Assembly: GCA_903872185.1 (NCBI GenBank)
Contig: CAIQJL010000375.1
Span: 1 to 61,359 of the forward strand
Direction: 5' to 3'
Length of the DNA stretch: 61,359 bases
From: an uncultured Bacteroidota bacterium
GTDB taxonomy: Bacteria; Bacteroidota; Bacteroidia; Bacteroidales; GWA2-32-17
Shown: positions 12,378 through 57,141 of the stretch, in pieces
Layout of the letters: each line of letters opens with the position of its first letter
How positions within the stretch are numbered: position 1 is the first letter of the stretch
The notes under the pieces: generated by a model
Seen by the model: the letters and a program-made list of their open reading frames with translations, nothing else
Told to the model about the DNA's origin: nothing
Databases searched by the model: none
Program-made: the position numbers and the translations under genes

Positions 12378-12426
12378 CCCTTCGACTTTCCTTCGACTAC
12401 GCTCAGGACAAGCTACTCAGGGTGGC
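12378..12426. repeat. Nested REP-like element
   Basis: Outer CCCTTCGACT...CTCAGGGTGGC encloses inner CCTTCGACTACGCTCAGGACAAG (12390-12412). Confidence 0.7.
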
Positions 12427-12437
12427 TATCTAAAAAA

Positions 12438-13121
12438 TTATTTTTTCTTTTTATCGCGAACTAAAACCTCATCAATTAAGCCATAAGCTTTAGCTTCTGT
12501 TGCTGTCATCCAATAATCACGATCGCTATCTTTTTCGATTTTCGCAAAAGGATTTCCAGAATGAATAGCAAGAATATCATATAATTCTTTTTTCAATTTT
12601 AGAATTTCGCGAGCTGTTATTTCTATATCACTTGCTTGTCCTTCTGCACCACCCATTGGTTGGTGAATCATAACGCGACTATGTGTTAAAGCAGAGCGTT
12701 TACCTTTTGCACCAGCAGTTAATAAAATTGCCCCCATTGAAGCAGCCATTCCTGTACATATTGTTGCAACATCAGATCCAATATATTGCATAGTATCATA
12801 GATTCCTAATCCAGCATATACTGAACCACCAGGGGTATTGAAATAAATCTGAATATCTTTATTTGGGTCGCTGCTTTCTAAGAAAAGTAATTGTGCCTGA
12901 ATAATATTTGCAACATCATCATCAATAGGTGCACCTAAAAATATTATACGATCCATCATTAATCTTGAAAAAACGTCCATTGTTGCAATGTTTAACTGAC
13001 GCTCTTCAATAATTGTTGGTGAGATATAGCTATTTGTTACAGATTTATAACCATCAAAAATAGAACTACTAATTCCTTTGTGCTTAATTGCATATTTTCT
13101 GAATTCGCTATTATCTTTCAT
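12438..13121 (-). CDS. clpP: ATP-dependent Clp protease proteolytic subunit
   Basis: [21 protein letters not shown] (Ser), MIHQPMGG (His), DRDYWM (Asp). Confidence 0.98.
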
Positions 13122-13142
13122 AGTTTAAATTTTAATTAGTTT

Positions 13143-14489
13143 TTACAATTTGCGAAACTCTTCTGGAGTAATTTCTTTTATTTCCAAATTTATCGATTCT
13201 TTCACAAATTCTAACACTTTATCTTCAACTTTTTTCTCTTCGATACGTTTTTTCTCTTTTTCGTTTGATAAAATTCTTTTTGCCATTTCATCAAGATACT
13301 CTTCAGGAACATTGTTCATTCCATATTGGCGGAACTGAGCCATTGCCACCTGTTTAGCTAACTCGTTTACTTCTTCTTCGCTTATTCTTAAGTCGTTTTC
13401 TTTTATGAATTTTTCCTTAACAAGCTGCCATTTAATGTCTTCCTGAAATGCAGGATATTCTTTTTCAAGAACATCATCTGTTAATTCTTTCTCGCTTGTT
13501 TTCTTTAACCATTTCTTTAAGAAGTCGTTTGGAAGTTCAAAAGTAGCCTGTGCCATCAATTGAGCACGAATATCAGCTTTAAGTTTATAATCACTTTCTG
13601 CTTTATAGCTTTCTGAAATTTCAGAAGTTATTTTTTCTAAAAATTGTTCTTCTGATGTTACTACATCTTTACCGTATATTTTATCCCAAAGTTCCTGATT
13701 AATTTCTGCATCAATGAATGAAGTCACTTCTTTTACCGTGAAACTGAAGTTATTAGTAGTTAATACCAAATCTTGTTTCTTTTGATTTAATAAACCGGCT
13801 ATTTCGTCATCATTAGGAAATGCTTTTTTAATATCAAAACTAACATACTGATTAACTGTTAAGCCAATAAACTGTTTTTTTATTTCTTCATCTTTAATTA
13901 CAGAAACAAGCATTTTTGATTCTTCATTAACAATACCACCTTCTGTTTCTTTGCCATCATCATTTAATTGAGTCATACAACCTTTAAGCATAGATTTCTC
14001 TTCGCTTTGATCAGCAGGCATATACGAGCCATAATTTCTGGTATAATATGTTTTGAAATTATCAATTGATTCCTGATCAACAGTTAAACTATATAGAGGA
14101 AGCTTAACTTTTTTATCAATTTTAATATCTATTTCAGGAGAAAGTCCTATTTCAAATGAAAATTCAAAAGTAGGCTCACTATCAAGATCAATTTTATCTA
14201 AATTATTTTCAGTAGCTAAAGGTTCTCCTAAAATACTTACTTTATTTTCTACTACATAATTCCACAAAGAATCAGATAAAACTTTATTTACTTCGTCGAT
14301 TAAAACATTCTTACCATACATTTTTTTTACTAATCCTGCTGGCACCATGCCAGGGCGAAACCCTTTAATACTAGCTTTTTTTCGAAGGTCTTTCATTGCT
14401 TTTTCAACTTTTTCTTCGTAATCAGCTTTCTCAATTTTAACATTTAAAATTGCATTTAATGCGTCAAGGTCAGTCTTTGTAATGTTCAT
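13143..14489 (-). CDS. tig: Trigger factor (start reassigned to MNITK at 14489)
   Basis: KGFRPGMVP ribosome-binding signature; tig-clpP-clpX order; the longer start at 14555 lies upstream of the promoter. Confidence 0.95.
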   Translation of the reverse strand: MNITKTDLDALNAILNVKIEKADYEEKVEKAMKDLRKKASIKGFRPGMVPAGLVKKMYGKNVLIDEVNKVLSDSLWNYVVENKVSILGEPLATENNLDKIDLDSEPTFEFSFEIGLSPEIDIKIDKKVKLPLYSLTVDQESIDNFKTYYTRNYGSYMPADQSEEKSMLKGCMTQLNDDGKETEGGIVNEESKMLVSVIKDEEIKKQFIGLTVNQYVSFDIKKAFPNDDEIAGLLNQKKQDLVLTTNNFSFTVKEVTSFIDAEINQELWDKIYGKDVVTSEEQFLEKITSEISESYKAESDYKLKADIRAQLMAQATFELPNDFLKKWLKKTSEKELTDDVLEKEYPAFQEDIKWQLVKEKFIKENDLRISEEEVNELAKQVAMAQFRQYGMNNVPEEYLDEMAKRILSNEKEKKRIEEKKVEDKVLEFVKESINLEIKEITPEEFRKL

Positions 14490-14521
14490 TTTAAATCTAA
14501 ATTTTAATTTTAAAACCGCCA

Positions 14522-14529
14522 CAAATATA
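14522..14529 (-). promoter_or_regulatory. -7 element (TATATTTG) for the tig-clpP-clpX operon
   Basis: TAnnTTTG match about 30 nt upstream of the tig ATG, inside an imperfect hairpin that may also end the tRNA transcript. Confidence 0.5.
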
Positions 14530-14565
14530 ATATTTGCAGCGGTTTCATTTTTCACTTCTTATAAG

Positions 14566-14647
14566 TACGGGTGAAGGGACTCGAACCCCCACACCTTGCG
14601 GCACCAGATCCTAAGTCTGGAGCGTCTACCAATTCCGCCACACCCGC
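14566..14647 (-). tRNA. tRNA-Leu (anticodon TAG), CCA not encoded
   Basis: GCGGGTG/CACCCGT acceptor stem, TGGCGGAATTGGTAGACGC D arm, CCAGA-CTTAGGA-TCTGG anticodon arm, long variable arm, GGTTCGAGTCC T arm. Confidence 0.97.
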
Positions 14648-14659
14648 AAAAAACGGTTG

Positions 14660-14667
14660 CAAAGTTA
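14660..14667 (-). promoter_or_regulatory. -7 element (TAACTTTG) of the tRNA-Leu gene
   Basis: TAnnTTTG match 12 nt upstream of the tRNA 5' end. Confidence 0.6.
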
Positions 14668-14789
14668 AAGGTTTTTATTTATAAATTATAATTTTTCACT
14701 AACTTTTCAAAAAAAAGTGCTCTAATTTTGTAAATTGAAAGAAGTTGTGTTAATTTGTTCCAATTAATATTTCGAAACAACAAACAGCT

Positions 14790-16928
14790 ATGAGATTAAT
14801 CCTTAGTTTTTTACTTATTACTTTTGCGTCTTTAAACCTTATTGCGCAAACTGATGTTGAAGTTATTAATCAAACAAATAAGAATGCACTTGACAGTAAT
14901 CAGGTTAAGTGGCAGGCTGCTTTAATTAAAGACTCCTTACTGCAAATAAATAAAAACAAGATAGTTAACGTAAGGTGGGCTTCAAAAGTTGTTGATTTTT
15001 CTACACAATTTTCCAAAAAAGAAAAAGCTGCTTATCAAGTTTTAGGAAGACCAAACGTACTTCCAATTGGTGGTGATGCAAAAACAGCATGGAGTGTAAA
15101 AGAAAAAGATGGTAAAGAGTCAGATAACGACGCATTCATAAGAGTAGGCTACGATAACCCATCTAGGGTTCAACAAATTGCCATTGCAGAAAGCTTTAAT
15201 CCTGGATCAATTACAAAAGTAACGGTATTTGGTGTAAAAGGTGAACAACAAGTTGTTTACGAAAAACCAGCACAAAATTTAGGTATTAAAAGCAGAATGA
15301 TGAACATTATACTTCCTCAGGCAACAGAGTTTTATGTTTCTGAAGTAGAAGTCAGGCTTGACCCTACTGCAATTATTGGAAGCAATCAAATTGACGCCAT
15401 TGGTGTTTCGGAAAATAAAGATTCAGTTACATGGAGTATTAATTTAATTCCTATGGTTGAATTTCCAAGCGCTGCTGAAAACTTAGGCGAAGCAATTAAT
15501 TCTATATATGATGAAGTTGCTCCAATGATTTCTCCTGATGGAAAAACTGTATATTTCTGTCGTAAATTACATCCAGAAAATGCTGGTGGGTTTAATGATG
15601 AAGATGATATCTGGTATTCGAAAAAAGATGACAACGGAAAATGGATTGCTGCTAAAAACATTGGTGCACCATTAAATAATAAATTCAACAATTTTGTTCA
15701 ATCTATTACTCCTGACGGAAACTCATTATTAGTTGGTAATTTATATAATAAAGACGGAACTACTGGTGCAGGCGTTTCTTTAACTTACAAAACAAAACAG
15801 GGATGGGCATTACCAGAGAAACAAACTATTGATGATTTTTTAAATCTTAATCAATTTGCAAATTATTTTTTATCAAATGATGGAAAATATTTACTTATGG
15901 CTATTGAAAAAGGTGATTCATATGGTGAACTCGATATTTATGTAAGTTTTAGAAAAGGCGATAACCGCTGGTCTAAACCTACTAATTTAGGGCCAATGAT
16001 TAATTCATGTGTAAACGATTACAGTCCTTTCTTAGCTGCTGACGGAGTAACACTTTACTTTTCAACCGCAGGTATTTCAGGTTATGGACTAGAAGACATT
16101 TTTGTTACTACTCGTTTAGATGATACTTGGACAAATTGGAGCGAACCACAAAATTTAGGTTCAAAATTAAACAGTGCATCTTCTGATTCAAAATATAATA
16201 TTCCTGCCTCTGGTGAGTTTGCATTTTTCTCAACTACAAATAAATCTATAGGAAAGAATGACATTTTCAAAATTAAACTTCCAACTAAAATAAAACCAAA
16301 TCCAGTAGTATTAATTTCAGGTAAGGTTATTAACGAAAGAACAAATCAACCTGTTGATGCAAGAATTATTGTTGAAGAATTACCTAGCGGAAGAGAAGCT
16401 GCTATTGCTCGTACCGACCCAAATACAGGCGAGTTTAAAATTATTCTTCCAGCTGGAAAAAAATACGGATTCCGTGCAATTGGTTTAGGATTTTTTGAGG
16501 TTAATAAAAATATCGACTTAAGCGATGTTAAAGAATACACTGAAATAGAAGACGAAATGTTGCGTATGGCACCTATAGAAGTAGGTTCTATTGTAAGACT
16601 TAACAATATTTTCTTTGAATTTGCTAAAGCAACTTTATTACCAGAATCATTTCCAGAACTTGACAGAACAGCTGATTTCTTAAAAACAAATTCAAATATT
16701 ACAATTGAAATTGGCGGTCATACTGATGATGTTGGATCTGATGTTACAAATCAAAAACTTTCAGAAAAAAGAGCTCAGTCAGTTGCTACCTATTTAATTT
16801 CAAAAGGCCTAGACACAAAACGTGTTACTGTTGTAGGTTATGGCGAAAGTCGCCCTGTTGCATTCAATACCGACGAAGAAGGTCGTGCAATGAACCGTAG
16901 AGTTGAATTTAAAATCATGAAAAAATAA
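14790..16928 (+). CDS. OmpA-family protein with PD40 repeats and an extra N-terminal beta domain
   Basis: Signal peptide; PD40 repeats; C-terminal OmpA motifs NIFFE..KA, IEIGGHTD..G, NQKLSEKRA, GYGESRP, NRRVEF. Confidence 0.9.
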   Translation: MRLILSFLLITFASLNLIAQTDVEVINQTNKNALDSNQVKWQAALIKDSLLQINKNKIVNVRWASKVVDFSTQFSKKEKAAYQVLGRPNVLPIGGDAKTAWSVKEKDGKESDNDAFIRVGYDNPSRVQQIAIAESFNPGSITKVTVFGVKGEQQVVYEKPAQNLGIKSRMMNIILPQATEFYVSEVEVRLDPTAIIGSNQIDAIGVSENKDSVTWSINLIPMVEFPSAAENLGEAINSIYDEVAPMISPDGKTVYFCRKLHPENAGGFNDEDDIWYSKKDDNGKWIAAKNIGAPLNNKFNNFVQSITPDGNSLLVGNLYNKDGTTGAGVSLTYKTKQGWALPEKQTIDDFLNLNQFANYFLSNDGKYLLMAIEKGDSYGELDIYVSFRKGDNRWSKPTNLGPMINSCVNDYSPFLAADGVTLYFSTAGISGYGLEDIFVTTRLDDTWTNWSEPQNLGSKLNSASSDSKYNIPASGEFAFFSTTNKSIGKNDIFKIKLPTKIKPNPVVLISGKVINERTNQPVDARIIVEELPSGREAAIARTDPNTGEFKIILPAGKKYGFRAIGLGFFEVNKNIDLSDVKEYTEIEDEMLRMAPIEVGSIVRLNNIFFEFAKATLLPESFPELDRTADFLKTNSNITIEIGGHTDDVGSDVTNQKLSEKRAQSVATYLISKGLDTKRVTVVGYGESRPVAFNTDEEGRAMNRRVEFKIMKK

Positions 16929-16946
16929 TCCTCAAATATTTTTATT

Positions 16947-17306
16947 ATGAAATATTTCAAACAAAACGAAACACTAAATGGTGACTCATGTGTAAATTTA
17001 TACAGTGGAATTTCTCAGGATGATATGAATAATGAAGTAGATAAACTTTTTAAATCATCTGGCTATAAAATAAAAGAAGGAAAACCGGGAAATGCTACAT
17101 ACGAAAAAGGAAGTAAAACAATGAGAATTTTGTTTGGTGCATTTTCTAAACATTTTGTTTTTCAAATTAAAACATACGCTAACGAACCTGATACTGTAAA
17201 AGTAACGGTTGTTAAGGGAACAAATGGTATAGCTGGTGGTTTGGTTGGAATGAAACAAGTAAAAAATGAATTAACAAGAATTTCTCAAGTTCTTCAAACT
17301 ATTTAA
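16947..17306 (+). CDS. Hypothetical protein (119 aa)
   Basis: ATG 18 nt after the OmpA gene, plausible composition; its stop abuts the convergent gamma-CA stop. Confidence 0.65.
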   Translation: MKYFKQNETLNGDSCVNLYSGISQDDMNNEVDKLFKSSGYKIKEGKPGNATYEKGSKTMRILFGAFSKHFVFQIKTYANEPDTVKVTVVKGTNGIAGGLVGMKQVKNELTRISQVLQTI

Positions 17307-17822
17307 TTATTCTTTATACCAACTTGCATACATAGTATAACTATTTGCAATTCTTTCAATTTGCCCAACAACTAATGAGGGGTCTACATTTTTAATTTTT
17401 TTAGCTGGTATACCTGCATAAACTGAGCCTTCTTCTATTATTGTATTTTCTGACACAACTGCTCCAGCAGCAATAACACAATTGCTATGTATTATAACAC
17501 CATCCATAATAATAGCACCCATTCCAATTAACACATTATCATGAATTGTACATCCATGAACTATTGCATTATGAGCAATTGACACATTATTACCAATAAC
17601 AGTTGGTGCTTTTTTATAAGTTACGTGCACAATTGCACCATCTTGAATATTAACTTTATTTCCAATTCTTATTGTATTTACATCGCCCCTAACAACTGCA
17701 TTAAACCAGACACTACATTCGTTTCCCATAACAACATCTCCAACAATAGTAGAATTTTCTGCAAAAAAACAATTCTCACCAAATATTGGTTTAATACCTC
17801 TCAATTCAATAATCAACGCCAT
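17307..17822 (-). CDS. Gamma carbonic anhydrase family hexapeptide-repeat protein
   Basis: SVWFNAVVRGDVN, NIQDGAIVH, SIAHNAIVHGC (three Zn-binding His). Confidence 0.93.
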   Translation of the reverse strand: MALIIELRGIKPIFGENCFFAENSTIVGDVVMGNECSVWFNAVVRGDVNTIRIGNKVNIQDGAIVHVTYKKAPTVIGNNVSIAHNAIVHGCTIHDNVLIGMGAIIMDGVIIHSNCVIAAGAVVSENTIIEEGSVYAGIPAKKIKNVDPSLVVGQIERIANSYTMYASWYKE

Positions 17823-17859
17823 AACATTTAGAAATTTAATAAAATTAGAACTCTAAAGA

Positions 17860-31914: not shown

Positions 31915-31943
31915 TCTAATCGTAGTTTGAAACTACGATTAGA
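31915..31943. repeat. Perfect 13-bp inverted repeat just after the ygfK stop (terminator or REP-like)
   Basis: TCTAATCGTAGTT-tga-AACTACGATTAGA; no U-tract. Confidence 0.55.
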
Positions 31944-31978: not shown

Positions 31979-32041
31979 GCTTGTCGAAGGACTCGAAAAC
32001 TGAGGTTCTATAAGTCACCCTTTGAGTGCCTCAGGGTGACA
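31979..32041. repeat. Truncated nested REP-like element
   Basis: GCTTGTCGAAGGA (reverse complement of inner unit TCCTTCGACAAGC) joined to CTCGAAAAC; right unit CCCTTTGAGTGCCTCAGGGTGACA. Confidence 0.65.
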
Positions 32042-37044: not shown

Positions 37045-39612
37045 ATGATTAATTTCATTCTTAACAAAGAGAATATTAATTACAACGGTAATCCTGAATT
37101 AACGTTGTTAAAGTATTTACGAAATGAATTAGAAATTACTTCTGTAAAAGATGGTTGCTCTGGACAAGCTGCTTGTGGTGCTTGCATGGTTGAAATAAAC
37201 GGAGAAGCAAAACTTTCATGCATTACTCCAATGAATAAAATTCAAGGAACAGAAGTTACAACTATGGAAGGTGTGCCTGAACCCATAAAACAAGTTTTAG
37301 GAAAAGCATTTGTTGAAAAGGGTGCCGTTCAATGCGGATTTTGCACACCAGGATTCTTGATGAGGACAAAAGTTCTTCTTCAGAAAAACCCAACTCCCAC
37401 AAAAGAAGAAATAAAACAGGCACTAACTTTAAATCTTTGTCGTTGTACCGGATACGTCAAAATTATTGAAGCAATTGAAGAAGCAGCAAAATCTTTAACA
37501 AATGGTAAAGGAATTGAATACTCAGACATCTCAGGAAAAGTAGGAACTTCATATCCTAAATATCAGGCATACGAAACTGCAATTGGCAAAAGAGCTTTTG
37601 TTAATGATTTGCATTTTGAAGGAATGCTACATGGTGCTTTAAAATTCAGTGATTATCCTCGCGCAAAAGTTTTAAAAATAGACATTTCGGTAGCATCAAA
37701 AATTAAAGGTGTATTAAAAATATTTACTTCAAAAGATATTCCCGGAGATAAATTTATCGGACTAATATATCAGGATTGGCCTTTAATGATTGGCGAAGGA
37801 GAAATCACAAGATATATTGGTGATGTAATAGCAGGAGTAGTTGCAGAAACTGAAGAAATAGCAAGAGAAGCAGCAAAGAAAATAAATATAAGCTACGAGA
37901 TTCTTGAACCAGTTACAGATCCATACGGAGCATTAAAAGCGAACTCTCCACAAGTTCAACCGAATCATGATAATTTATTAGATAACTGCAAAGTCTATCG
38001 TGGAGGAAATGCAGAAGAAGTATTGAGAAAATCAGATTATATTTCAAATGGAACTTACAATACCCAGCGTATTGAGCACGCATTTTTAGAGACTGAAGGT
38101 GCAGTAGGATTACCAAAAGAAAATGGAATAACATTATACACTAACGGCCAAGGAATATATGTTGACAGAAAGCAAATTTCAAAAATACTAGCACTTCCTG
38201 AAGAAAAAATAAATGTAATACTTATTCCAACAGGTGGTGGCTTTGGGGGTAAAGAAGACATGACAGTTCAAGGTCATACTGCATTATTTACATGGCTACT
38301 AAAAAAACCTGTAAAATTAATTCTTTCAAGAGAAGAGTCATTCAGAATGCATCCTAAACGACATCCTGTTTTTATGGATATTGAAATGGGTTGCGATAAA
38401 AACGGAATGTTAACTGCCGTAAAACTTATGGCCGTTGGTGATTCTGGAGCTTATGCTTCTGTTGGAACAAAAGTCATGGAAAGAGTTGCTGGTCATGCTA
38501 CCGGAGGTTATCATTTCCCATGCGTAAATCTTGAAGCAAAAACTGTATACACTAACAATATCCCAAGCGGTGCTATGCGTGGGTTTGGCGCTAATCAGGT
38601 TTGTTTTGCATTAGAAGGATGTATTGATGAACTTTGTAAACAAGGTGGTTTTGATCGTTGGAAATTTAGATATGATAATGCTTTAACAGAAGACAGAATG
38701 ACCGCTACAGGTCATATATTGAAATCAGGAGTTGGAATTAGAGCAACACTTGATGCACTCAAACCATATTATGATAAAGCAAAATTCAAAGGCTTAGCTT
38801 GCGGAATAAAAAATTCAGGCGTTGGAAATGGCATGGAAGATTCAAGTGATGTTATAATTGAAATAATTTCAGAACAACAAGTAAACATACAACATGGCTG
38901 GACTGAAATGGGGCAAGGCATTCACAATATGGCGATTCAGACGTTACATGAAGAAACAGGAATAAATCCGGAAATAATTGAAGTAGTTGTTGATTCAGCA
39001 GCAGGAATAACAACGGGCATGACAACATCATCTCGTGCAACCGCTTTACTTGGAAATGCAATTATTGATGCTTCAAAACAAATTATAGAAGATCTTAAAT
39101 CAAATAAACTCTCCGAATTAAAAGGTAAAACCTATAAAGGAAATTATACTTGCAACTGGACAACAAAACCAGGTGCAGATGTAAAAGAAATAATAACACA
39201 CTACTCATATGGATACGCATCACAGCTTGTTGTTTTAAATGATAAAGGAGAAATAGACACTGTCTTTGCAGCACATGATGCCGGTAAAATAATGAATCCA
39301 ATAATGTTTGAAGGCCAAATTGAAGGCGCTGTTCATATGGGTGTTGGATATGCTTTGACGGAAGACTTACCAATGAAAGATGGATTTCTTGTATCTACAA
39401 AAATGAGAGATTTAGGAATTTTATCTGCTAAAGAAACACCAAAAATAAAAGTAATTGGTGTTGAAGTTAAAGATTCTGTTGGTCCTTATGGTGCAAAAGG
39501 ACTAGGTGAAATTGGATTAGTACCTACAGCAGCAGCTGTAGCCAATGCACTTTGCGATTTTGACGGGGTTAGAAGATATTCTTTACCAATGAAACGAAAA
39601 AAGAAATGTTAA
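37045..39612 (+). CDS. xdh: Single-chain selenium-dependent xanthine dehydrogenase-type molybdenum hydroxylase (2x[2Fe-2S] + Moco, no FAD domain)
   Basis: KDGCSGQAACGAC, QCGFCTPG, NLCRCTGY, EHAFLE, GGGFGGKED, GAMRGFG, GAKGLGEIG; 855-aa fused layout like clostridial/enterococcal Se-XDH. Se dependence is inferred from family. Confidence 0.88.
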   Translation: MINFILNKENINYNGNPELTLLKYLRNELEITSVKDGCSGQAACGACMVEINGEAKLSCITPMNKIQGTEVTTMEGVPEPIKQVLGKAFVEKGAVQCGFCTPGFLMRTKVLLQKNPTPTKEEIKQALTLNLCRCTGYVKIIEAIEEAAKSLTNGKGIEYSDISGKVGTSYPKYQAYETAIGKRAFVNDLHFEGMLHGALKFSDYPRAKVLKIDISVASKIKGVLKIFTSKDIPGDKFIGLIYQDWPLMIGEGEITRYIGDVIAGVVAETEEIAREAAKKINISYEILEPVTDPYGALKANSPQVQPNHDNLLDNCKVYRGGNAEEVLRKSDYISNGTYNTQRIEHAFLETEGAVGLPKENGITLYTNGQGIYVDRKQISKILALPEEKINVILIPTGGGFGGKEDMTVQGHTALFTWLLKKPVKLILSREESFRMHPKRHPVFMDIEMGCDKNGMLTAVKLMAVGDSGAYASVGTKVMERVAGHATGGYHFPCVNLEAKTVYTNNIPSGAMRGFGANQVCFALEGCIDELCKQGGFDRWKFRYDNALTEDRMTATGHILKSGVGIRATLDALKPYYDKAKFKGLACGIKNSGVGNGMEDSSDVIIEIISEQQVNIQHGWTEMGQGIHNMAIQTLHEETGINPEIIEVVVDSAAGITTGMTTSSRATALLGNAIIDASKQIIEDLKSNKLSELKGKTYKGNYTCNWTTKPGADVKEIITHYSYGYASQLVVLNDKGEIDTVFAAHDAGKIMNPIMFEGQIEGAVHMGVGYALTEDLPMKDGFLVSTKMRDLGILSAKETPKIKVIGVEVKDSVGPYGAKGLGEIGLVPTAAAVANALCDFDGVRRYSLPMKRKKKC

Positions 39613-39627
39613 ATACCACAACACTCA

Positions 39628-39711
39628 GTCATCCTGAGGCACTCGATGGATTGACCCATATTCCACCACACATGGCTCGATCCTTCGACAAGCTCAGGAC
39701 TAAACATGACC
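39628..39711. repeat. REP-like dimer with nested inner unit
   Basis: Colinear with the reverse complement of 57072-57141, but TCCTTCGACAAGCTCAGGACT (39681-39701) occupies the loop. Confidence 0.78.
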
Positions 39712-39761
39712 CTTACCATTTTGCACTATATTATATTATTTTACATTAAATATTAACTTTA

Positions 39762-41030
39762 ATGGCTATTTATTTAAAAAACGCAACATTTATTGATTGG
39801 CAAACTTTAGAATTTAAAACCTCTAATATTAAAGTTAATTCAGGAATTAATAATGGTTTTGAATTCATAAATGAAATACCAATTAATCTTAATCAAGAAT
39901 TAATTGATTGCACAGGCAAATATGTTACAAAATCTTTTGTATGCGGACATCATCACATATATTCAGCACTTGCAAGAGGAATGAGTGCGCCTAAAAAGAA
40001 TCCCGAAAATTTTTATGAAATTTTGCAATATGTTTGGTGGACACTAGATAAATGTCTGGATAAAGACATGATTGAAGCGAGTGCATTAACAACTGCAATT
40101 GCTTGTGCAAAAAGCGGAACAACTTTCGTAATTGACCACCATGCTTCACCTTTTGCAGTTGAAGGTTCATTAGAGATTATTGCAAAAGCTTTTGAAAAAG
40201 TTGGTCTCTCCCATTTGTTATGTTACGAAATATCGGATAGAGACGAATTAGAGATTGCAGAAAAAGGACTTTCTGAAACTGAGAATTATTTAAAATATAA
40301 TCAAGGATTAGTAGGTCTTCACGCATCATTCACAGTTTCTGACGATACACTAAAAAAGGCAATTTCAATTGCAGATAAATACAAATCTGGTTTGCATATT
40401 CATGTTGCAGAAGACAAATACGATCAAGAACATTGTGTAAATAATTATAAACAAAGAGTTGTTGAACGATTAAATAATTCAGGAGGATTAAGTTCGTCAA
40501 AAACAATTCTAGGGCATTGTCTTCATTTAAGTGATAACGAAAAAACAATAATTAGAAACTCAAATGCCTGGGTTGTACAAAATAGTGAAAGTAATTTAAA
40601 TAATAACGTTGGTTATTTTGATTCAAGAGGTTTAGGAGAAAATATTATGCTTGGAACAGATGGAATGCATAGTGATATGTTGCGTTCTGCTAAATCAGCA
40701 TTCTATGTTGGACAAGGATTCGATAGCATTGATTATTCAGGTGTTTATAAACGTTTTAGAAATGCTCATAACTATTTAAGTACGAATAATTTTTCAGGAG
40801 ATGGCGACAATAATCTTGTCATTTTAGATTACGACTCTCCAACTGAATTTAATCAGAATAATTTCTTAGGCCATTTTCTTTTTGGTATAGAATCAAAACA
40901 TGTGCAACATGTTATTTCAAATGGGAAATTGATAGTAAAAGACAGATTCATTCAAACAGTCAATGAAAATGACATTTTAAATTCTTCAAAAGAACTTTCA
41001 AAATTACTATGGAAAAAAATGAGTAAATAA
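39762..41030 (+). CDS. ssnA: SsnA-family amidohydrolase
   Basis: CGHHHIYSALARG, F.EIL...WW.LD, IDHHASP, GLHASFT, HIHVAED, GTDG. Confidence 0.88.
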   Translation: MAIYLKNATFIDWQTLEFKTSNIKVNSGINNGFEFINEIPINLNQELIDCTGKYVTKSFVCGHHHIYSALARGMSAPKKNPENFYEILQYVWWTLDKCLDKDMIEASALTTAIACAKSGTTFVIDHHASPFAVEGSLEIIAKAFEKVGLSHLLCYEISDRDELEIAEKGLSETENYLKYNQGLVGLHASFTVSDDTLKKAISIADKYKSGLHIHVAEDKYDQEHCVNNYKQRVVERLNNSGGLSSSKTILGHCLHLSDNEKTIIRNSNAWVVQNSESNLNNNVGYFDSRGLGENIMLGTDGMHSDMLRSAKSAFYVGQGFDSIDYSGVYKRFRNAHNYLSTNNFSGDGDNNLVILDYDSPTEFNQNNFLGHFLFGIESKHVQHVISNGKLIVKDRFIQTVNENDILNSSKELSKLLWKKMSK

Positions 41031-41057
41031 TTTTTCCTAAAAACACAGCTCAAAAGA

Positions 41058-41561
41058 ATGAATAAAATAGAGAATGTAATAAAAGCATTAGATTTAATGC
41101 CGCATCCGGAAGGTGGATACTTCAAAGAGACTTATAGAAGTACCGGAGAAATAAAACAAGAAAATCTCAGCTCTGATTTTAACGGAAATAGAAATTATTC
41201 AACTTGTATATACTTTTTGCTAACATCAGATACGTTTTCTGCATTTCATAGAATTAAACAAGATGAAATATGGCATTTTTATGATGGTTCTCCAATAAAT
41301 CTTCATACCATTAGCTCAGAAGGGAAATACTCATTAATTGTAATTGGTAAAGAAATTGAAAAAGGACAGATTCCTCAATATGTAGTACCTGCAGGTGTTT
41401 GGTTTGCAGCAAAAGTTTTAAATAAAAACGATTACAGCTTGTTAGGATGCACTGTTTCACCTGGATTTAATTTTAATGACTTTGAACTTCCTAACAGAAT
41501 TGATTTAATTAACAAATTTCCACAACACACTAATATTATTACAGAATTAACATGGAAATAA
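41058..41561 (+). CDS. Cupin_5 (DUF985/YML079w-like) protein
   Basis: L.PHPEGGYFKETYRS, IYFLL, SAFHRI..DEIWHFY.G, VPAGVWFAA, GCTVSPGF.F.DFEL. Confidence 0.9.
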   Translation: MNKIENVIKALDLMPHPEGGYFKETYRSTGEIKQENLSSDFNGNRNYSTCIYFLLTSDTFSAFHRIKQDEIWHFYDGSPINLHTISSEGKYSLIVIGKEIEKGQIPQYVVPAGVWFAAKVLNKNDYSLLGCTVSPGFNFNDFELPNRIDLINKFPQHTNIITELTWK

Positions 41562-42175
41562 CAATTTTACAAATTATTGGGTACGCAGCTTCAATTATCA
41601 TTGCTGCCTCAATGACAATGAATTCAATAGTAAAATTCAGATGGATAAATCTAGTTGGGGCATCAACTTTCTCAGTTTATGGATTTGTTATTGGAGCATT
41701 CCCTGTGGGCATTTTAAATGGTTTTATTGTTTGCGTTGATATTTACTACTTATATAACATTTATTCAAAAAAAGAAGTTTTCGAAACTCTTGAATTAAGA
41801 CCTGAAAACAGATATCTTATTAGATTTTTAGAATTTCACAATGATGAGATTCAAAAGAATTTTCCAGGGTTTACATATAAACCAGAAATGAATACCATAA
41901 GTTTCTTCACATTAAGAAATATGTCGGTTGCAGGTGTTTTTCTTGCTCATCGAGAAGATGACAACATACTAAAAGTTGGCCTTGACTATGTTATTCCTGA
42001 GTACAGAGATTTTAAAAACGGCAAATACATTTATAGTCGCGTTAAGAATCGCTTTATTGGAGCAGGTTTTGCGAAAGTAATAGCACCTCCATCAAGTGAT
42101 AAGTATGTAAAATATTTGAAAAAACTTAATTTTACAGAAAATGCTGATGGGTTGTATGAAATTAAACTTAAATAG
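41552..42175 (+). CDS. YgjV-like 3-TM membrane domain fused to a soluble, possibly GNAT-like domain
   Basis: IGY.AS....S.TM....FRWINLVG...F..YG; C-terminal LDYVIPEYRDFKNG and YLKKL.F; 10-nt overlap with the cupin gene. Confidence 0.65.
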   Translation: MEITILQIIGYAASIIIAASMTMNSIVKFRWINLVGASTFSVYGFVIGAFPVGILNGFIVCVDIYYLYNIYSKKEVFETLELRPENRYLIRFLEFHNDEIQKNFPGFTYKPEMNTISFFTLRNMSVAGVFLAHREDDNILKVGLDYVIPEYRDFKNGKYIYSRVKNRFIGAGFAKVIAPPSSDKYVKYLKKLNFTENADGLYEIKLK

Positions 42176-49095: not shown

Positions 49096-49109
49096 ATATT
49101 CAGTTTCTT

Positions 49110-50767: not shown

Positions 50768-50815
50768 ACTTAACAATATTCAATTTTCATTATAGAGTGC
50801 TTCTGAAAAAAGAAA

Positions 50816-51391: not shown

Positions 51392-51401
51392 TATTTGGCA
51401 T

Positions 51402-51632: not shown

Positions 51633-51798
51633 AAATGAAAACATAAATATTTTCATTTCAAACTTTATTTTTTACTATCGCCTTAGGTGAAACACCTAAC
51701 AAAAAATCGTTAAATAACAGATTAAACTCTTCTTATATTTGACAAAAGTTTTATTAAAAAAAGTTCACAAAATAAATGTTACTATTTAATATTCCTTT

Positions 51799-53952
51799 AT
51801 GGAAAATAAAAAAATAAAACTTCGTAAAAAAGCAGAAGAAAAACATGAACAGGAATCTAGCATTCCTGATAAAAGCATTGTAGACGCTAATGCACTTAAG
51901 TTTTACCATGAACTTGAGGTGCATAAAATTGAACTTGAACTACAAAATGTAGAGCTAAAACTTGCAAAAGAAAATGCTGATATACTTGCAGAAAAATATT
52001 CAGAATTATATGATTTTGCACCTTCTGGTTATGTTACACTTTCTAGCGAAAGAATAATTATTGAACTTAATCTTTTAGCATCAACTTATCTAGGAAAAAA
52101 TAGGGGAGAATTATTAAATAAAAGTTTTTTACTCTTATTAAATGAAGAATCAAAATATATTTTTGATGTATTTATAAAAAAAATATTAACGTCAAATAAA
52201 AATGAATCTTGTGAAGTAATAATTACTCAGAATCGAAATTCGCCTTTACACATTCTTTTATCTGGTATTGTGAAACAAAATGAGAATAATTACTATATAT
52301 CTTTAACAGATATAACATATCGAAAACAGATAGAAAACGTTCAATTATTTTTGCTGCAGAATAAAAGATATGATGATTATAGTAATTTTTTTGAATCTAT
52401 AACAAAGTATCTCTCGCAAACATTAGGTATGGAATACGTTTGTATAGAAAAATTGGAAGATGATGGATATACAACACAAACATTAGCTGTTTGCGATGGT
52501 AAAAATAACTTTTCACATGTATCATTAAATTTAAAAGAAACTCCTTTTGATTTTTTTATTGGAAAAACAAGTTGTTATTTTCAAGATAGTGTAAGCGAAA
52601 TATTTCCTAAAAATACATTATTTAAATATTTAAAGGCAAAAAGTTTTATTGGTGTAACAATATATAGTTTTATTAATAAGCCTATCGGATTTATTGCAGT
52701 TATTGGGAAAAAACCTATAGATAACCCTGCTTTAGTTGAAACAATATTGAAATTAGTTAGCATGCGTGTTGCAAGAGAGCTGGAAATAATTCATACTCAT
52801 AACATTTTAATAAAAGCAAAAGAAAAAGCTGAAGAAAGTGACCGTTTAAAATCGGCATTTCTGGCAAATATGAGCCACGAAATTAGAACTCCTATCAGTG
52901 GAATTTTAGGGTTTGCATACTTTCTTAAAAATCAAGAACTTTCTTTTGAAACGCAAAAAGAATATATTTCTATAATAGAAAAAAGCGGACTGCGTATGCT
53001 GAATATTATTAATGATATTATAGTTATATCAAAAATTGATGTTGGTATTTATGACATTGATATTACTGCTACTAATATAAACGAGCAAATTGAATTTATT
53101 TATTCTTTTTTTAAGCCTGAAGCAGAATTAAAAGGATTAAAATTTAAATTAAATAACAATATAACAAAAGAAGGAATTGTTTTAAATACAGACAAAGAAA
53201 AGATATACTCAATTCTTACTAACATTATTAAAAATGCTATTAAATTTACCAATAAAGGAGTTATTGAATTTGGTTACAACATAAAAGATGATTTTCTAGA
53301 GTTTTATATAAAAGATACAGGAATTGGCATTAACATTGTTCAGCAAAAAATTATTTTTGAAAGGTTCAGACAAGGTAGCGAGTCATATTCAAGAGAATAC
53401 GAAGGGTCGGGTTTAGGATTATCTATATCAAAAGCTTATGTTGAATTATTAGGTGGTAAAATATGGGTAGAAAGTGAACGAGGCATAGGATCTACCTTTT
53501 ATTTTACTTTGCCTTATGATAAAGTTTCTGCAAATAATCTTAGCATAATAAATGACACAGAAAATTTTGAAGAAAATAAAGTTTTAAGAAGTTTAAAAAT
53601 ACTCATAGTTGAAGATGATAACATAATAGAAAAAATAATAACATTAAAAGTAGAAAAATACAGTAAAGAAATTTTAAGAGCAAATAATGGACTTGATGCG
53701 CTTAGAATTTGCAAAAATAATTTAGATATAGATTTAATTTTAATGGATATTAAATTACCTATTATGGACGGATACGACTCTATACGTCAAATACGAAAAT
53801 TTAATGCAGGTGTAATTATTTTTGCGCAAACAGCCTATACTTTTGATAACGACAGACAAAAAGCATTCGATGCCGGATGTAACGAATTTATTACAAAGCC
53901 TTATGAAAGAGATATAATAGAAAAATTAATTGAAGAATATTTTAAAAAATAA
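51799..53952 (+). CDS. Cytoplasmic hybrid histidine kinase (PAS-GAF-HisKA-HATPase-REC)
   Basis: ELEVHKIELELQN..L, YDFAP.GY, FLANMSHEIRTP, NAIKFT, DTGIG, GSGLGL, LMDIKLP, KP. Confidence 0.92.
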   Translation: MENKKIKLRKKAEEKHEQESSIPDKSIVDANALKFYHELEVHKIELELQNVELKLAKENADILAEKYSELYDFAPSGYVTLSSERIIIELNLLASTYLGKNRGELLNKSFLLLLNEESKYIFDVFIKKILTSNKNESCEVIITQNRNSPLHILLSGIVKQNENNYYISLTDITYRKQIENVQLFLLQNKRYDDYSNFFESITKYLSQTLGMEYVCIEKLEDDGYTTQTLAVCDGKNNFSHVSLNLKETPFDFFIGKTSCYFQDSVSEIFPKNTLFKYLKAKSFIGVTIYSFINKPIGFIAVIGKKPIDNPALVETILKLVSMRVARELEIIHTHNILIKAKEKAEESDRLKSAFLANMSHEIRTPISGILGFAYFLKNQELSFETQKEYISIIEKSGLRMLNIINDIIVISKIDVGIYDIDITATNINEQIEFIYSFFKPEAELKGLKFKLNNNITKEGIVLNTDKEKIYSILTNIIKNAIKFTNKGVIEFGYNIKDDFLEFYIKDTGIGINIVQQKIIFERFRQGSESYSREYEGSGLGLSISKAYVELLGGKIWVESERGIGSTFYFTLPYDKVSANNLSIINDTENFEENKVLRSLKILIVEDDNIIEKIITLKVEKYSKEILRANNGLDALRICKNNLDIDLILMDIKLPIMDGYDSIRQIRKFNAGVIIFAQTAYTFDNDRQKAFDAGCNEFITKPYERDIIEKLIEEYFKK

Positions 53953-53964
53953 ATTATCTTTTAT

Positions 53965-54328
53965 TGTCATGGCGTACGCCTCGGCGAATTGATCCGCCAT
54001 CTTTTTATAGGATAAGTTGCATTGAGCTTTATGTTATGTAATTATACAAAAACTTCCTGTAGTTCTCGATTAAACTCGAACAAGCATTGTAGGTATCTCG
54101 ATTCAAATTCTATATGCTACTTCGTCCGCCGTGGCAAATGCGAAGCGTATCAAGAAGTAAATAAGTTAAAATTTGAAATAAAAAAGACGTACAAATTGTA
54201 CGGCTTTTTTATTAGTAAAATTCTTTCACTCACCACTCCATTCGACATGGTGAGCGTCCGCCACGGCGGATCGAACCATGGACCCTTCGATGGAGTTTAT
54301 CCTGACGAAGGAAGGGCTCAGGGTAAAT
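53965..54328. repeat. Dense cluster of nested palindromic repeats
   Basis: GC-rich hairpins at 53965-54002, 54062-54081, 54112-54150 and 54235-54328; three copies of a TCCGCCnnGGCGGA unit. Confidence 0.72.
54181..54210. terminator. Probable bidirectional terminator
   Basis: AAAAAGACGTACAA/TTGTACGGCTTTTTT between the convergent kinase and ygeW genes. Confidence 0.6.
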
Positions 54329-54340
54329 ACGGATGCTTTG

Positions 54341-55531
54341 TTATAATATTATTCTTTCTCTTTTTTGATTATATAACTTTTCTAAAATAGCACCAGCATT
54401 TTTAAATTTGTTATTTAGAATCATTGAAGCAATAATATAAGGTTTAAAACCAGCCTCTTTATAAGTTTCAATACGGTATCTTTCAAAAACGGTGTCGGCT
54501 ACTTCGCCCTCTTTGCATGAAACATTAGAGATATCAGCAGGTAAACAATGCATATATAAAGCTTTACCATCTTTGGTAAGTTTCATTTTTTCTTCGGTGC
54601 ATTCCCAATTTTTAAATTTCGCATTATTAGCAAGACATTCCTGCTCAAGCGATTTTAATCCTGCACTATCGTTATTCTGTAAAAGTACAGTTCTGCGTTC
54701 CATAACTTTATATGGTGCCCAGCTCTTTGGATAAACAATATCAGCATTTTTAAATGCATCATCCATTGAGTTTACAACATTAAATTTACCACCTGAATGT
54801 GCCGCATTTTTCTTAGCAATTTCAACAACTTCAGGTATTAGTTCGTAGCCTTCAGGATAAGCTAAATCAACTTCCATTCCCATACGGGTCATTAAACCAA
54901 TAATGCCCTGAGGTACTGATAAAGGTTTGCCATAACTAGGAGAATAAGCCCAGGTCATTGCAATTTTTTTGCCTTTTAAATTCTCAAGTGAACCGAAATA
55001 ATTTTTAAGGTGTAACAAATCAGCCATTGATTGTGTTGGGTGATCAATATCACATTGTAAATTCACAATACCAGGGCGCGAAGGAAGTACACCATTTTTA
55101 AATCCATCATCTAGAGCTTCGCCAACTTCAACCATGTAAGTGTGACCAGCGCCTAAATACATATCATCTCGAATTCCAATAACATCAGTCAAAAATGAAA
55201 TCATATTTGCAGTTTCGCGAACAGTTTCACCATGTGCAATTTGTGATTTACCTTCATCCAAATCCTGAACTTCTAACCCTAAAAGATTACAAGCTGACGC
55301 AAACGAAAACCTAGTTCTTGTTGAGTTATCACGGAAATTAGAAATTGCCAAACCCGAATCAAAACATTTTGCAGAAATATTATTATCACGAAGATGTTTT
55401 AATGCTTCAGCAACTAATAAAGTCTGCTTTAATTCTGCTTCTGTTTTGTCCCATGTTAAAAGAAAATCTTTTTCAAAAAGTCCGGTGTTAAGATTTTTAA
55501 TCTCTGAAATTAATTTGTTGAATTCTGACAT
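54341..55531 (-). CDS. ygeW: Knotted carbamoyltransferase YgeW
   Basis: FRDNSTRTRFSF, HGETVRETANMISF, DHPTQ, WAYSPSYGKPLSVPQG, YPKSW, MHCLPAD. Confidence 0.96.
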   Translation of the reverse strand: MSEFNKLISEIKNLNTGLFEKDFLLTWDKTEAELKQTLLVAEALKHLRDNNISAKCFDSGLAISNFRDNSTRTRFSFASACNLLGLEVQDLDEGKSQIAHGETVRETANMISFLTDVIGIRDDMYLGAGHTYMVEVGEALDDGFKNGVLPSRPGIVNLQCDIDHPTQSMADLLHLKNYFGSLENLKGKKIAMTWAYSPSYGKPLSVPQGIIGLMTRMGMEVDLAYPEGYELIPEVVEIAKKNAAHSGGKFNVVNSMDDAFKNADIVYPKSWAPYKVMERRTVLLQNNDSAGLKSLEQECLANNAKFKNWECTEEKMKLTKDGKALYMHCLPADISNVSCKEGEVADTVFERYRIETYKEAGFKPYIIASMILNNKFKNAGAILEKLYNQKRERIIL

Positions 55532-55576
55532 AATATTTTGGTTTAATTATACTTCTAATTTCAATCTTTCATGTTG

Positions 55577-55584
55577 CAAAAATA
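55577..55584 (-). promoter_or_regulatory. -7 element (TATTTTTG) upstream of ygeW
   Basis: TAnnTTTG match about 45 nt upstream of the ATG. Confidence 0.4.
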
Positions 55585-55603
55585 AGATTTTTTATTATTT
55601 TTT

Positions 55604-55765
55604 TGTCATGTTGAGTGTAACGAAACATCTAACTCTAGAATTATAGATTCTGCACTACGTTCAGAATGACAAAACAGTATTGTCATCCAGAATGAAGTGT
55701 AACGGAATGAAGGATCTAGATACGTATCATTCGTGTCTAGATTCTTCACTACGTTCAGAATGACA
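55604..55765. repeat. Two tandem REP-like dimers (55604-55671, 55681-55765)
   Basis: Each runs TGTCAT...ATCT-spacer-AGATTCT(G/T)CACTACGTTCAGAATGACA. Confidence 0.82.
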
Positions 55766-55773
55766 TTTAGAGT

Positions 55774-56961
55774 TTAAATCATATACGCATAAGCTGCATA
55801 GAATGCTGAAGCAGCAACAAGATCGCTAACTGGAACCTTTTCATTTGGAGCATGAGCAAGAACTTCATTACCTGGCCCAAAACCAATTGTTGGAATTTTA
55901 TACATTCCATTTGTTGCTATTCCATTAGTAGAAAATGTCCATTTATCAATAAAAGGCTTTTTGTTAAATAAACCTTCAAAAGCCTGAACTCCCGCCTGAA
56001 CAACATGCTCACCTTCTTCAATTTTCCATGTAGGATAATATTTTTCCATTCCGTATTTTAAACCGGTATACGCAAGTTCCTCGTAATACAAAATCTCGAC
56101 TGTTGCATCCATACCTTTTACTATTGCTTCAATTTCAGAAACAGCAGATTCTTTAGTCTCTCCCCATGTTAAACGTCTGTCCAAATGAAACTGAGCATAA
56201 TCAGCAACAGCGCATAACGAAGGACTTCCAGATTTTATTTCGGATATTGTTACAGAACCTTTTCCTAAAAATGGATCGGTTCCTAATCTTTCATTTAATT
56301 TTTCAATTTCAAGTGCAGCACGGGCAGCCATATATATTGCATTTTTTCCTCTTTCTGGTGCACTACCATGACATGAAACACCACGGAATTTTACAACAAT
56401 TTCCATTCTTCCTCTGTGCCCACGATAAATATTGAGGTTAGTTGGTTCTGTACTTATTACAAAATCTGGACGTAATTTTTCTTCCTCTACAATATATTTC
56501 CAGCAAAGGCCATCGCAATCTTCTTCCATAACACTACCCACAACATAAACTGTAAGGTCTTTATCAAAACCAAGTTCTTTTAATATTTTTCCAGATGTTA
56601 CAGCAGCAGCTGGTCCACCTTCCTGATCAACGGTTCCACGACCATGCACAAAACCATCTTTTATTTCCCCTGAAAAAGGATCGAAACTCCAGTTATCAAT
56701 ATTCCCAACATCAACAGTGTCCATGTGTCCGTCAATAGCAAGTATACGTTTTCCATTTCCAATTCTCCCAATTACATTTCCAAGACCATCAATTCGCACC
56801 TCGTCAAAGCCAGCTTCTTCCATCTGTCGTTTAAGTTCCAACTGAACATCTTTCTCGTTCATACTGGTTGATTTTATCTTTATCAGCTTTGATAAATTAT
56901 TGGCAGTATAGTCTTTATACTTTTCTGCAAGTGCATTTATTTTACTAAAAATTTCGTTCAT
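55774..56961 (-). CDS. ygeY: YgeY family M20 metallo-amidohydrolase
   Basis: DGHMDTV, GRGTVDQEG, MEEDCDG, STEPT, RGHRGRME, SCHGSAPERG, WTFSTNG, AHAPNE. Confidence 0.94.
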   Translation of the reverse strand: MNEIFSKINALAEKYKDYTANNLSKLIKIKSTSMNEKDVQLELKRQMEEAGFDEVRIDGLGNVIGRIGNGKRILAIDGHMDTVDVGNIDNWSFDPFSGEIKDGFVHGRGTVDQEGGPAAAVTSGKILKELGFDKDLTVYVVGSVMEEDCDGLCWKYIVEEEKLRPDFVISTEPTNLNIYRGHRGRMEIVVKFRGVSCHGSAPERGKNAIYMAARAALEIEKLNERLGTDPFLGKGSVTISEIKSGSPSLCAVADYAQFHLDRRLTWGETKESAVSEIEAIVKGMDATVEILYYEELAYTGLKYGMEKYYPTWKIEEGEHVVQAGVQAFEGLFNKKPFIDKWTFSTNGIATNGMYKIPTIGFGPGNEVLAHAPNEKVPVSDLVAASAFYAAYAYMI

Positions 56962-56983
56962 TTCTTTTTATTTAAATGGGTCG

Positions 56984-56991
56984 CAAATTTA
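56984..56991 (-). promoter_or_regulatory. -7 element (TAAATTTG) of ygeY
   Basis: TAnnTTTG match 22 nt upstream of the ATG. Confidence 0.55.
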
Positions 56992-57071
56992 TGATATTGT
57001 TTTAAAATAAAGTCAAAATTAATGTAATATTGATATATACTTAAATAAGAACTGCAAATAACTAATAATAT

Positions 57072-57141
57072 GGTCATGTTGAGGCTCTCGAAACATGTGT
57101 GAAGAGAAGTGGGCAAATCCTTCGAGTACCTCAGGATGACT
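57072..57141. repeat. REP-like dimer (un-nested reference copy)
   Basis: GGTCATGTTGAGGCTCTCGAAACATG...TCCTTCGAGTACCTCAGGATGACT. Confidence 0.8.

Follow-up and report, generated by a model that had tools for sequence, protein, structure and literature searches.

How does one small palindrome come to lie within the loop of another? The question is raised by the window analyzed here (the whole 61,359-nucleotide stretch, positions 1 to 61,359, forward strand, of contig CAIQJL010000375.1 in assembly GCA_903872185.1), which comes from an uncultured Bacteroidota bacterium of the Bacteroidales lineage GWA2-32-17 and in which repetitive extragenic palindromic (REP)-like hairpin units harbor a second, smaller unit of the same kind in their loops. 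Repeats of the REP type are commonly regarded as specific to a lineage and as mobilized by their own REP-associated tyrosine transposase (RAYT). An initial annotation, made from the letters of the window alone, had proposed that an element of ~20–25 nt repeatedly targets hairpin loops of its own family through a structure-guided insertion or template switch, implying an enzyme. Comparison of the source genome (G000; 4.30 Mb in 407 contigs, 30.8% GC) with other members of its genus shows that the nesting is real and recurrent and that sister species differ, in both directions, by the exact presence or absence of the inner unit. Coordinates are window positions unless a contig is named, and all genomes compared are draft assemblies.

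A Nested Doublet and Its Canonical Counterpart

The window contains a nested and an un-nested copy of the same doublet, with the following parts:

39628..39651, + strand: left REP unit of a REPIN-like doublet (REPIN, REP doublet forming a hairpin), GTCATCCT-GAGGCACTCGA-TGGAT
39672..39710, + strand: right REP unit, host of the inner unit, ATGGC-TCGA...AACAT-GAC
39681..39702, + strand: inner unit, 22 nt, TCCTTCGACAAGCTCAGGACTA in place of the canonical GAGCCTC
57072..57141, − strand: canonical, un-nested REPIN-like doublet of the same family as that at 39628

The two-armed doublet at 39628–39711 consists of GTCATCCTGAGGCACTCGATGGAT, a 20-nt spacer, ATGGCTCGA, the inner unit and AACATGAC. The reverse complement of 57072–57141 reads GTCATCCTGAGGTACTCGAAGGAT, spacer, ATGTTTCGA, GAGCCTC, AACATGAC and represents the same element. 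The colinearity of the two copies noted in the initial annotation is therefore confirmed, with 22 nt at 39681–39702 occupying the place of the 7-nt GAGCCTC of the canonical copy. In the predicted DNA fold of the 39628 doublet, CTCAGGA of the inner unit pairs with TCCTGAG of the left arm (−14.3 kcal/mol, z −3.8). MAFFT also returned a second, equally gapped alignment of the two copies, in which the inner unit is matched to the canonical arm and the surplus sequence is that of the outer half-arms, and thus the window locus by itself cannot separate an insertion from a wrapping.

The assembly is reproduced in Logan contigs of run X1, one of which covers 38000–41759 and another 53484–55258, each with 0 differences; because X1 is possibly the source sample, this agreement counts as a second assembler rather than a second sample. 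The runs were compared as contigs, in which rare alleles are not visible. One contig of run X5, from a different lake study, lacks 15 nt at 39681–39703, which gives the canonical 7-nt loop length. It was considered as an empty allele and not used as evidence, since an orthologous locus of a related strain and a paralogous doublet are indistinguishable here. Among orthologues of the 39628 site there is no clean allele: in congener G007 the doublet has a different, degenerate right arm, and in G005 and G006 the element is absent.

The Inner Unit Is a Discrete Module Within a Hairpin Superfamily

In G000 every unit of the family has the architecture stem-TCGA...CTC-stem. The commonest form is GTCAnnCT-TCGAG[AT][AG]CCTC-AGnnTGAC, in which the stem dinucleotide varies with compensation, and units start with GTCA and finish with TGAC. 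Plain units, of the type stem-TCGAGNNCCTC-stem, number ~77, and a further ~13 carry an inner unit. The plain host loop, TCGAGNNCCTCA, gives 77 matches compared with 6 in a reversed control, and 58 copies combine a perfect stem of at least 6 bp with an 11-nt loop; further loop types are TCGACT[ACT]CGCTC, TCGATCCGCCGTGGCGGACGCTC and the nested forms. Canonical doublets of the window's family number 12, and generic doublets are arranged head-to-head in 25 cases versus tail-to-tail in 4. The core of the inner unit, defined by the pattern CTTCGNC-N2-4-GCTCAGNNC, occurs 13 times compared with 0 for the reversed pattern, and TCGA lies 1–5 nt upstream in 8 of these 13 (control, 0). A half-site token grammar and a loose regular expression for units were also tried, and both proved too degenerate to be useful. 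A putative second REP family, GTAGTT..AACTAC, was dropped as it showed no enrichment over its reversed control (18 vs. 18).

The inner unit is a discrete 22–24-nt module, with the consensus CCTTCGNC-ANG-CTCAGGNC-ANGCY, and is the smallest member of a superfamily of REP-like hairpins that share the stem-TCGA...CTC-stem arrangement. This agrees with the size first estimated from the window, and the module recurs in apical loops of its own superfamily. Throughout the genus it sits in the 3-nt apex of the 11–12-nt loop of larger units, nearly always in the orientation of the host. The eight genomes of the genus contain 86 distinct core contexts. Of these, 25 parse as nested in a TCGA..CTC host of matching orientation (two or three parses are doubtful, that at window position 39683 among them), and the insert measures 24 nt in 15 of the 25. 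The host loop can be intact around the insert, either as TCGAG[AT][AG]C^[24 nt]^CTC (C52, C364, L099 and L041) or as TCGACTNC^[23–25 nt]^GCTC (L097, L095 and L019). A second nested class has TCGAG[CT], then 24 nt with a CC end, then CTC. The remaining 61 contexts are varied and include cores wrapped by GATGCTGC...AAGTTCAGCATGAC; cores are also found in A/T-rich terminator-like stems, in three-level forms (L080 and L083) and in inverted pairs (L037). A single REPIN family, recognized by its spacer, occurs un-nested, nested in the ATCCT arm (C227, L041 and L047), nested in the CATGTT arm (39683 and L104) and nested in the two arms at once (L104). In a doublet filled on both sides, the two inserts pair (−23.3 kcal/mol, z −3.8).

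Filled and Empty Alleles in Sister Species

The alignment of filled and empty alleles across sister genomes that the initial annotation had recommended was carried out at 17 loci, with G000 compared to its congeners; flank identity is 76–91% with G007 and G005 and falls below that with the remaining congeners. Six clean pairs were obtained, in which host unit and flanks are conserved and the inner unit (exactly +24 or +22 nt) is the sole difference. Three are filled in G000 only (f, i and j), and three are filled in the closest relative, G007, and empty in G000 (a, b and c):

pair (a), C77, ATCCT arm: G000 TCGAGTAC^CTC versus G007 TCGAGAAC, the 24-nt insert ACTTCGTCAGGCTCAGTGCAAGCT, then CTC
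pair (b), C227, CATGTT arm: G000 empty; G007 +22 nt
pair (c), C159, ~16.6 kb: G000 empty; +22 nt in G007 and G003
pair (f), C229: G000 +22 nt; G007 canonical, TCGAGAACCTC; G005 doublet inverted and empty
pair (i), C69: G000 GTCATCCTGAG, 24 nt, GCACTCGAAGGATGAC; G007 exact 24-nt gap, with 11 + 40 flanking bases identical
pair (j), C159:13859: G000 +22 nt; G007 empty

The module is thus present or absent at orthologous, conserved hosts of sister species, which reveals precise and repeated gain and loss. The junctions invariably fall within the 3-nt apex between TCGAG and CTC, so that the position of the inner unit is, as first supposed, non-random relative to the loop, and they form two classes. 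In class I, pairs (a) and (i), the apex triplet is kept and the junction is exactly CTGAG^ (GAG^...^G on the other strand). In class II, pairs (b), (c), (f) and (j), 25 nt take the place of the host apex triplet, which is not split, and the cut position therefore cannot be placed. None of the six pairs contains a target duplication beyond 0–2 ambiguous junction bases. In pair (a) a neighboring base differs as well (T vs. A); the agreement of this base with L104, a filled paralogue in G007, suggests co-conversion. At C227 the other arm is filled in both genomes, and the two inserts differ at ~7 of 28 positions, with 40 + 32 flanking bases identical. Pair (f), for which both G007 and G005 are empty, points to a gain in G000, and pair (c) points to a loss in G000 or else to two separate gains.

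Collectively, the six pairs, the two junction classes and a REPIN family nested in either arm or both bear out the claim of repeated nesting, through several independent events. A further candidate pair, (d), C52 versus L099, was first read as filled and empty and was set aside as ambiguous, as it may reflect a deletion between two neighboring units. At two loci the nested unit of G000 is matched by a unit with a CCGCC..GGCGG inner hairpin, in G005 for window 12378 and in G007 for C135, and six others (L019, L023, L033, L038, L047 and C364) differ by the whole element only.

Composite Units Are Also Carried by Larger Elements

It had been foreseen that nested forms might instead spread as a single composite. 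This holds only in part: the nesting events were several and independent, and composites spread as well. The composite TCGAG.GC[ACTTCG.CAAGCTCAGTGCAGGCT]CTC lies inside a ~230-nt element with terminal inverted repeats (TIRs), present in four to five copies of 74–81% identity, and composites are also amplified passively within such larger carriers, which resemble miniature inverted-repeat transposable elements (MITEs). The remnant at 31979, described below, is likewise shared with G005. The carrier, whose TIRs read GAAACTGTTTTGAATTTTA..., contains a REP doublet of which the second unit is always nested; its copies in G000 lie at C74:7429, C227:6313, C331:41189 and C352:5471, with a degenerate one at C338:17317.

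Whole doublets also vary between genomes. At C77:3800–4060 of G000 a canonical doublet forms the center of a ~170-nt insertion, located between a stop codon and an intrinsic-terminator hairpin, that is missing from four congeners (G005, L106; G003; G001; G002). At another site one REP doublet is shared by G007 (L130), G000 (L116) and, in inverted orientation, G005 (L131), which represents a flip or an independent insertion.

Other Nested Units in the Window and Their Surroundings

The window contains further units of the family:

12377..12423, + strand: two-level unit, host ACCCT-TCGAC...CTC-AGGGT, predicted hairpin weak (z 0.06)
12390..12415, + strand: inner unit CCTTCGACTACGCTCAGGAC (12390–12409) plus tail, 4 nt past the outer TCGA
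31979..31996, − strand: truncated remnant of a filled unit, TCGAGT then CCTTCGACAAGC on the minus strand
32014..32040, + strand: plain REP unit, GTCACCCT-TTGAGTGCCTC-AGGGTGAC, loop slightly decayed
54246..54280, − strand: unit with a different inner hairpin in its loop, TCGATCCGCCGTGGCGGACGCTC (minus strand), ~6 such in the genome
54282..54324, + strand: host ACCCT-TCGA...CTC-AGGGT with a reversed, shortened core at 54300–54312

Of the inner units first described, those at 12390 and 54300 do lie in outer units, 4 and 9 nt from TCGA, respectively, and that at 31979 is truncated and lies 2 nt from TCGA. The unit at 12390 has a near-identical composite elsewhere in G000 (C135:11137). At the site orthologous to 12377–12423, the outer stem is retained in G005 around another loop sequence, TAGATCTGCCGCGGCGGACGCTC, and in G007 there is a plain unit, homologous to the inner one. 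Positions 31979–31990 read GCTTGTCGAAGG, then ACTCGA, and form the 3′ remnant of a minus-strand filled unit; this arrangement is kept in G005 and absent in G007. At 54300–54312 the sequence TCCTGACGAAGGA lies in the opposite orientation to its host and the middle of the core is missing; it is a real variant, looser than the other inner units. A second kind of loop filling, a palindrome TCCGCC..GGCGGA directly past TCGA, is seen at 54246–54280 and, elsewhere in G000, at C159:24129, C152:772, C218:16468, C264:4099 and C393:439.

All window copies are intergenic and lie directly downstream of gene ends. The neighboring genes are ordinary, encoding molybdopterin oxidoreductase subunits, an amidohydrolase, ClpX, ClpP, ornithine/aspartate carbamoyltransferase and a protein with a Por_Secre_tail sorting domain, the last of which points to Bacteroidota. 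At gathering level, Rfam matches in the window are limited to a tRNA gene (14566–14647, − strand, 55.4 bits), with none for the repeat units. A palindrome at 31922–31936, GTAGTTTGAAACTAC (L005, 1321–1381), resembles inverted repeats beside a Y1_Tnp gene on C86; its pattern shows no enrichment over a reversed control (18 vs. 18). Over 52322–52972 contig depth rises 5–10× in each of the four runs and loose ends are numerous; this segment encodes the conserved histidine-kinase core of a 717-aa sensor protein and attracts contigs of other organisms.

The Inner Core Is Found in Many Phyla

Of 301 genomes sampled from the phylum, 137 contain the core pattern (controls were close to zero) and 16 the nested arrangement (for example, six copies in G237 and three in G109). 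The exact 19-mer of window positions 39682–39700 occurs at no fewer than 120 places in many phyla. Among the matches listed, the records include Alpha-, Beta-, Gamma- and Deltaproteobacteria, Chloroflexota, Bacteroidota, Acidobacteriota, Planctomycetota, Actinomycetes, Nitrospirales, Verrucomicrobiae and others; the inner core is not confined to one lineage. Of the 127 instances among these matches (loci L201–L320), 5 are nested and 32 are followed by GAACGG, and enrichment of flanking stems is weak (10 of the 127 listed, compared with 6 in a flank-swapped control). The 19-mer also appears in tandem arrays, formed by its 3′ half (L203, Dehalococcoidia) or by whole units (L225 and L264).

An inverted doublet of the same core, ..GCUGAgCUUGcCGAAGC.. 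/ ..UUCGgCAAGcUCAgC.., is contained in the consensus of the Rfam family RF02901 (AaHKsRNA41, Aggregatibacter sRNA 41). The likeness ends there, as matches of the present loci fall far below the gathering score of 97 (30.9 bits for L216 and 19.2 bits for the genus locus L104), and membership in RF02901 was rejected.

Mechanism of Gain and Loss

The enzyme family looked for was Y1_Tnp (HUH/Y1, RAYT). G000 encodes five Y1_Tnp genes, with 0 of them having a family unit inside 1.2 kb, and among 31 Y1 loci examined in the genus a family unit lies within ~1.5 kb at one place only (G002:C6, two overlapping loci). Y1_Tnp genes are found in eight of eight congeners, with 1–13 matches each; G005 has eight of them together with one core and 28 host loops. 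In the ten sampled genomes richest in cores, Y1_Tnp searches gave nothing for G056 (34 cores) and G156 (15 cores) and weak or partial matches only for G290 and G276. The correlation of nesting with HUH/RAYT enzymes suggested by the initial annotation thus did not emerge: Y1_Tnp searches of G000, its congeners and the genomes richest in cores revealed no link to nested units. One Y1_Tnp gene, in L157 (G007:C167), is flanked on both sides, at 1368 and 2079, by CTTCGACCCCTCTGGGGT-type palindromes, and plausibly forms a true REP-RAYT pair of another family.

We regard templated copying between paralogous units as the most likely and most economical mechanism, and tentatively assign it a probability of roughly 0.45. 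Copying would take the route of short-patch gene conversion or replication template switching, and could be primed by the loop-closing motifs TCGAG.. and ..CTCAG, which are common to all family members, as well as by the stems where these are shared. Because the loop-closing motifs are shared, filled and empty states would interconvert without a dedicated enzyme, and copying from a template would yield precise gain and loss with fixed orientation and fixed position. It also accounts for the replaced apex triplets, the co-varying base in pair (a) and the swap of insert subtype at C227, and the pairing of inserts when both arms are filled is expected if one arm templates the other. Insertion guided by structure and carried out by an enzyme, as initially proposed, is one candidate reading; with the triplet replaced in four of six pairs and a polymorphism that travels in (a), templated copying fits at least equally well.

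Several observations weigh against templated copying. Homology between donor and host is only ~5–11 nt between unrelated units, which is short for conversion. A second copy of the L099 insert was sought in G007 and not found (the pair is also ambiguous). Pairs (a) and (i), and the ambiguous (d), keep the triplet and have the exact GAG^...^G junction that site-specific insertion would give. The presence of the 19-nt core in many phyla argues for a conserved trans-acting factor that recognizes it. Copying does not account for how a core would first enter a hairpin that lacks homology to it, or for the reversal of the inner unit at 54300. Finally, polarity was judged from flank nucleotide identity alone.

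Loop-targeted single-strand transposition we consider possible though unlikely. Here a structure-specific enzyme (HUH/Y1 or other) would cut 3′ of CTGAG in the exposed apical loop, and the 22–24-nt hairpin would be pasted or excised without target duplication, by analogy with the peel-and-paste manner of the insertion sequences (IS) IS200/IS605. Gain and loss that are both precise, the missing target duplication, the fixed orientation and the exact GAG^/^G junction of class I pairs are consistent with such a reaction. So are the CTGAG that the unit itself contains and the three-level forms, as is the occurrence of the insert in type-1, type-2 and other hairpins and in hosts whose stems are unrelated. 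The nested forms in 16 of 301 genomes of the phylum, the conservation of the core across phyla and the independent variation of core and host abundance in the eight congeners fit as well. However, 0 Y1 genes are flanked by family units, of the ten genomes richest in cores two lack a Y1_Tnp match and two others show weak or partial ones, the element is one hairpin without two end hairpins, and the class II pairs replace the apex triplet. A bolder form of the idea appears doubtful to us, namely that the hairpin is the smallest mobile DNA unit yet described, moved in and out of apical hairpin loops (also within its own family) by an enzyme that is structure-specific, widely conserved and distinct from Y1/RAYT. 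A putative enzyme of this kind, recognizing the TCGA/CTCAG loop-closing motifs, would explain the persistence of the 19-nt core across phyla.

Nested units might also have arisen once or a few times and spread whole, the empty alleles being secondary, precise deletions of the inner hairpin left by replication slippage. The ~230-nt TIR element with its nested unit, the remnant at 31979 inherited in G005, pair (c), filled in G007 and the more distant G003 and empty in G000, and the 0–2-nt ambiguity at some junctions, which could serve slippage, are in keeping with this history. We nevertheless judge it improbable, given that un-nested units outnumber nested ones by ~77 to 13, that each deletion would have to restore the canonical 11-nt loop, that pair (f), with the same empty loop in G007 and G005, indicates a gain in G000, and that one REPIN family is nested in either arm or both. 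Least probable, and to our minds very unlikely, is that nothing moves and that the stacked stem with its TCGA/CTC internal loop is a functional RNA or DNA signal (for instance, for 3′-end protection or protein binding), with selection keeping or rebuilding nested forms. The location of all window copies directly past gene ends, the conservation of the core across phyla and the related doublet in Rfam as an expressed small RNA (sRNA), RF02901, albeit with subthreshold matches (30.9 vs. 97 bits), would suit a signal of this type. Yet point mutation cannot yield exact 22–24-nt indels, some nested forms fold no better than shuffles (12378–12427, z 0.06), and copies decay, as at 31979 and in the empty unit on C159.

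Relation to Known Systems and Implications

Peel-and-paste transposition of IS200/IS605 requires a Y1 transposase and two subterminal hairpins. The present units share with these elements precise excision, dependence on hairpins and the lack of target duplication, and in class I pairs a short fixed sequence, CTGAG, precedes the junction on one strand; they have one hairpin in 22–24 nt and no Y1 association. They also differ from MITEs, since the 22–24-nt unit has no TIRs and no target duplication, whereas the ~230-nt carrier does have TIRs. The similarity to REP/REPIN/BIME systems (BIME, bacterial interspersed mosaic element) with their RAYTs is evident in short, GC-rich, extragenic imperfect palindromes of high copy number, arranged as inverted doublets and placed directly past genes. 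In contrast to these systems, no cognate Y1 gene flanked by family units is found here, and the loop motifs are conserved and the stems variable. Excision events are known for REPINs (PMC3337134), resembling the loss of the present units. REPs carry conserved GTAG/CGTC tags, located at one end (PMC3733652), compared with the GTCA...TGAC ends seen here, and REPINs have been described as lineage-specific and vertically inherited (bioRxiv 10.1101/2022.05.22.493013), unlike a core common to many phyla.

Closer precedents exist for parts of the arrangement. Di Nocera et al. (2013, PMC3733652) described REP loops as long as 27 nt, with pairing in their inner regions, that coexist with short loops in one family, and some REPs that lie inside "target palindromes." Both features have counterparts here, in paired long loops beside short ones and in REPs inside other palindromes; the part of that report drawn on here contains no filled and empty orthologous alleles, no insert that is itself a family member and not the present sequence family. 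IS1397, ISPpu9 and others insert into REP loops (PMC1525189, PMC8450116, PMC12288879), so that REP hairpins are known there too as specific insertion targets, but these elements are kilobase-sized and encode a transposase, whereas the insert here is a 24-nt non-coding member of the same family as its target. The mobile GC clusters of yeast mitochondria (GC42) undergo merger and shuffling and are found stand-alone or merged at one homologous position, by a mechanism given as unknown in the account cited (PMC4478555). They resemble the present units as GC-rich palindromes in AT-rich spacers with stand-alone and merged states at a homologous position, and differ in belonging to a eukaryotic organelle and in sequence.

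Literature searches with family sequences as strings, which covered open-access text and could not reach sequences printed in figures, returned unrelated primer or miRNA matches only, and keyword searches returned these comparators, with no description of the present family or of nested REPs. REP loops as IS targets, long paired REP loops, REPs inside palindromes and merged yeast GC clusters are thus already known. What we did not find in this literature is a 22–24-nt family member gained and lost precisely in a loop apex, as shown by orthologous alleles, or a core common to many phyla.

The units described here depart from the usual view of REPs in that the loop rather than the stem is conserved, the core crosses phyla and a 24-nt member is precisely gained and lost inside others. 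One practical consequence is a warning, as such self-similar repeats yield spurious ORFs and "sRNA" calls in many genomes. The dozens of dated sites that are filled or empty in these sister species provide a tractable natural system in which to learn how tiny palindromes move, with templated copying and a single-strand enzyme as the two candidate mechanisms for study.

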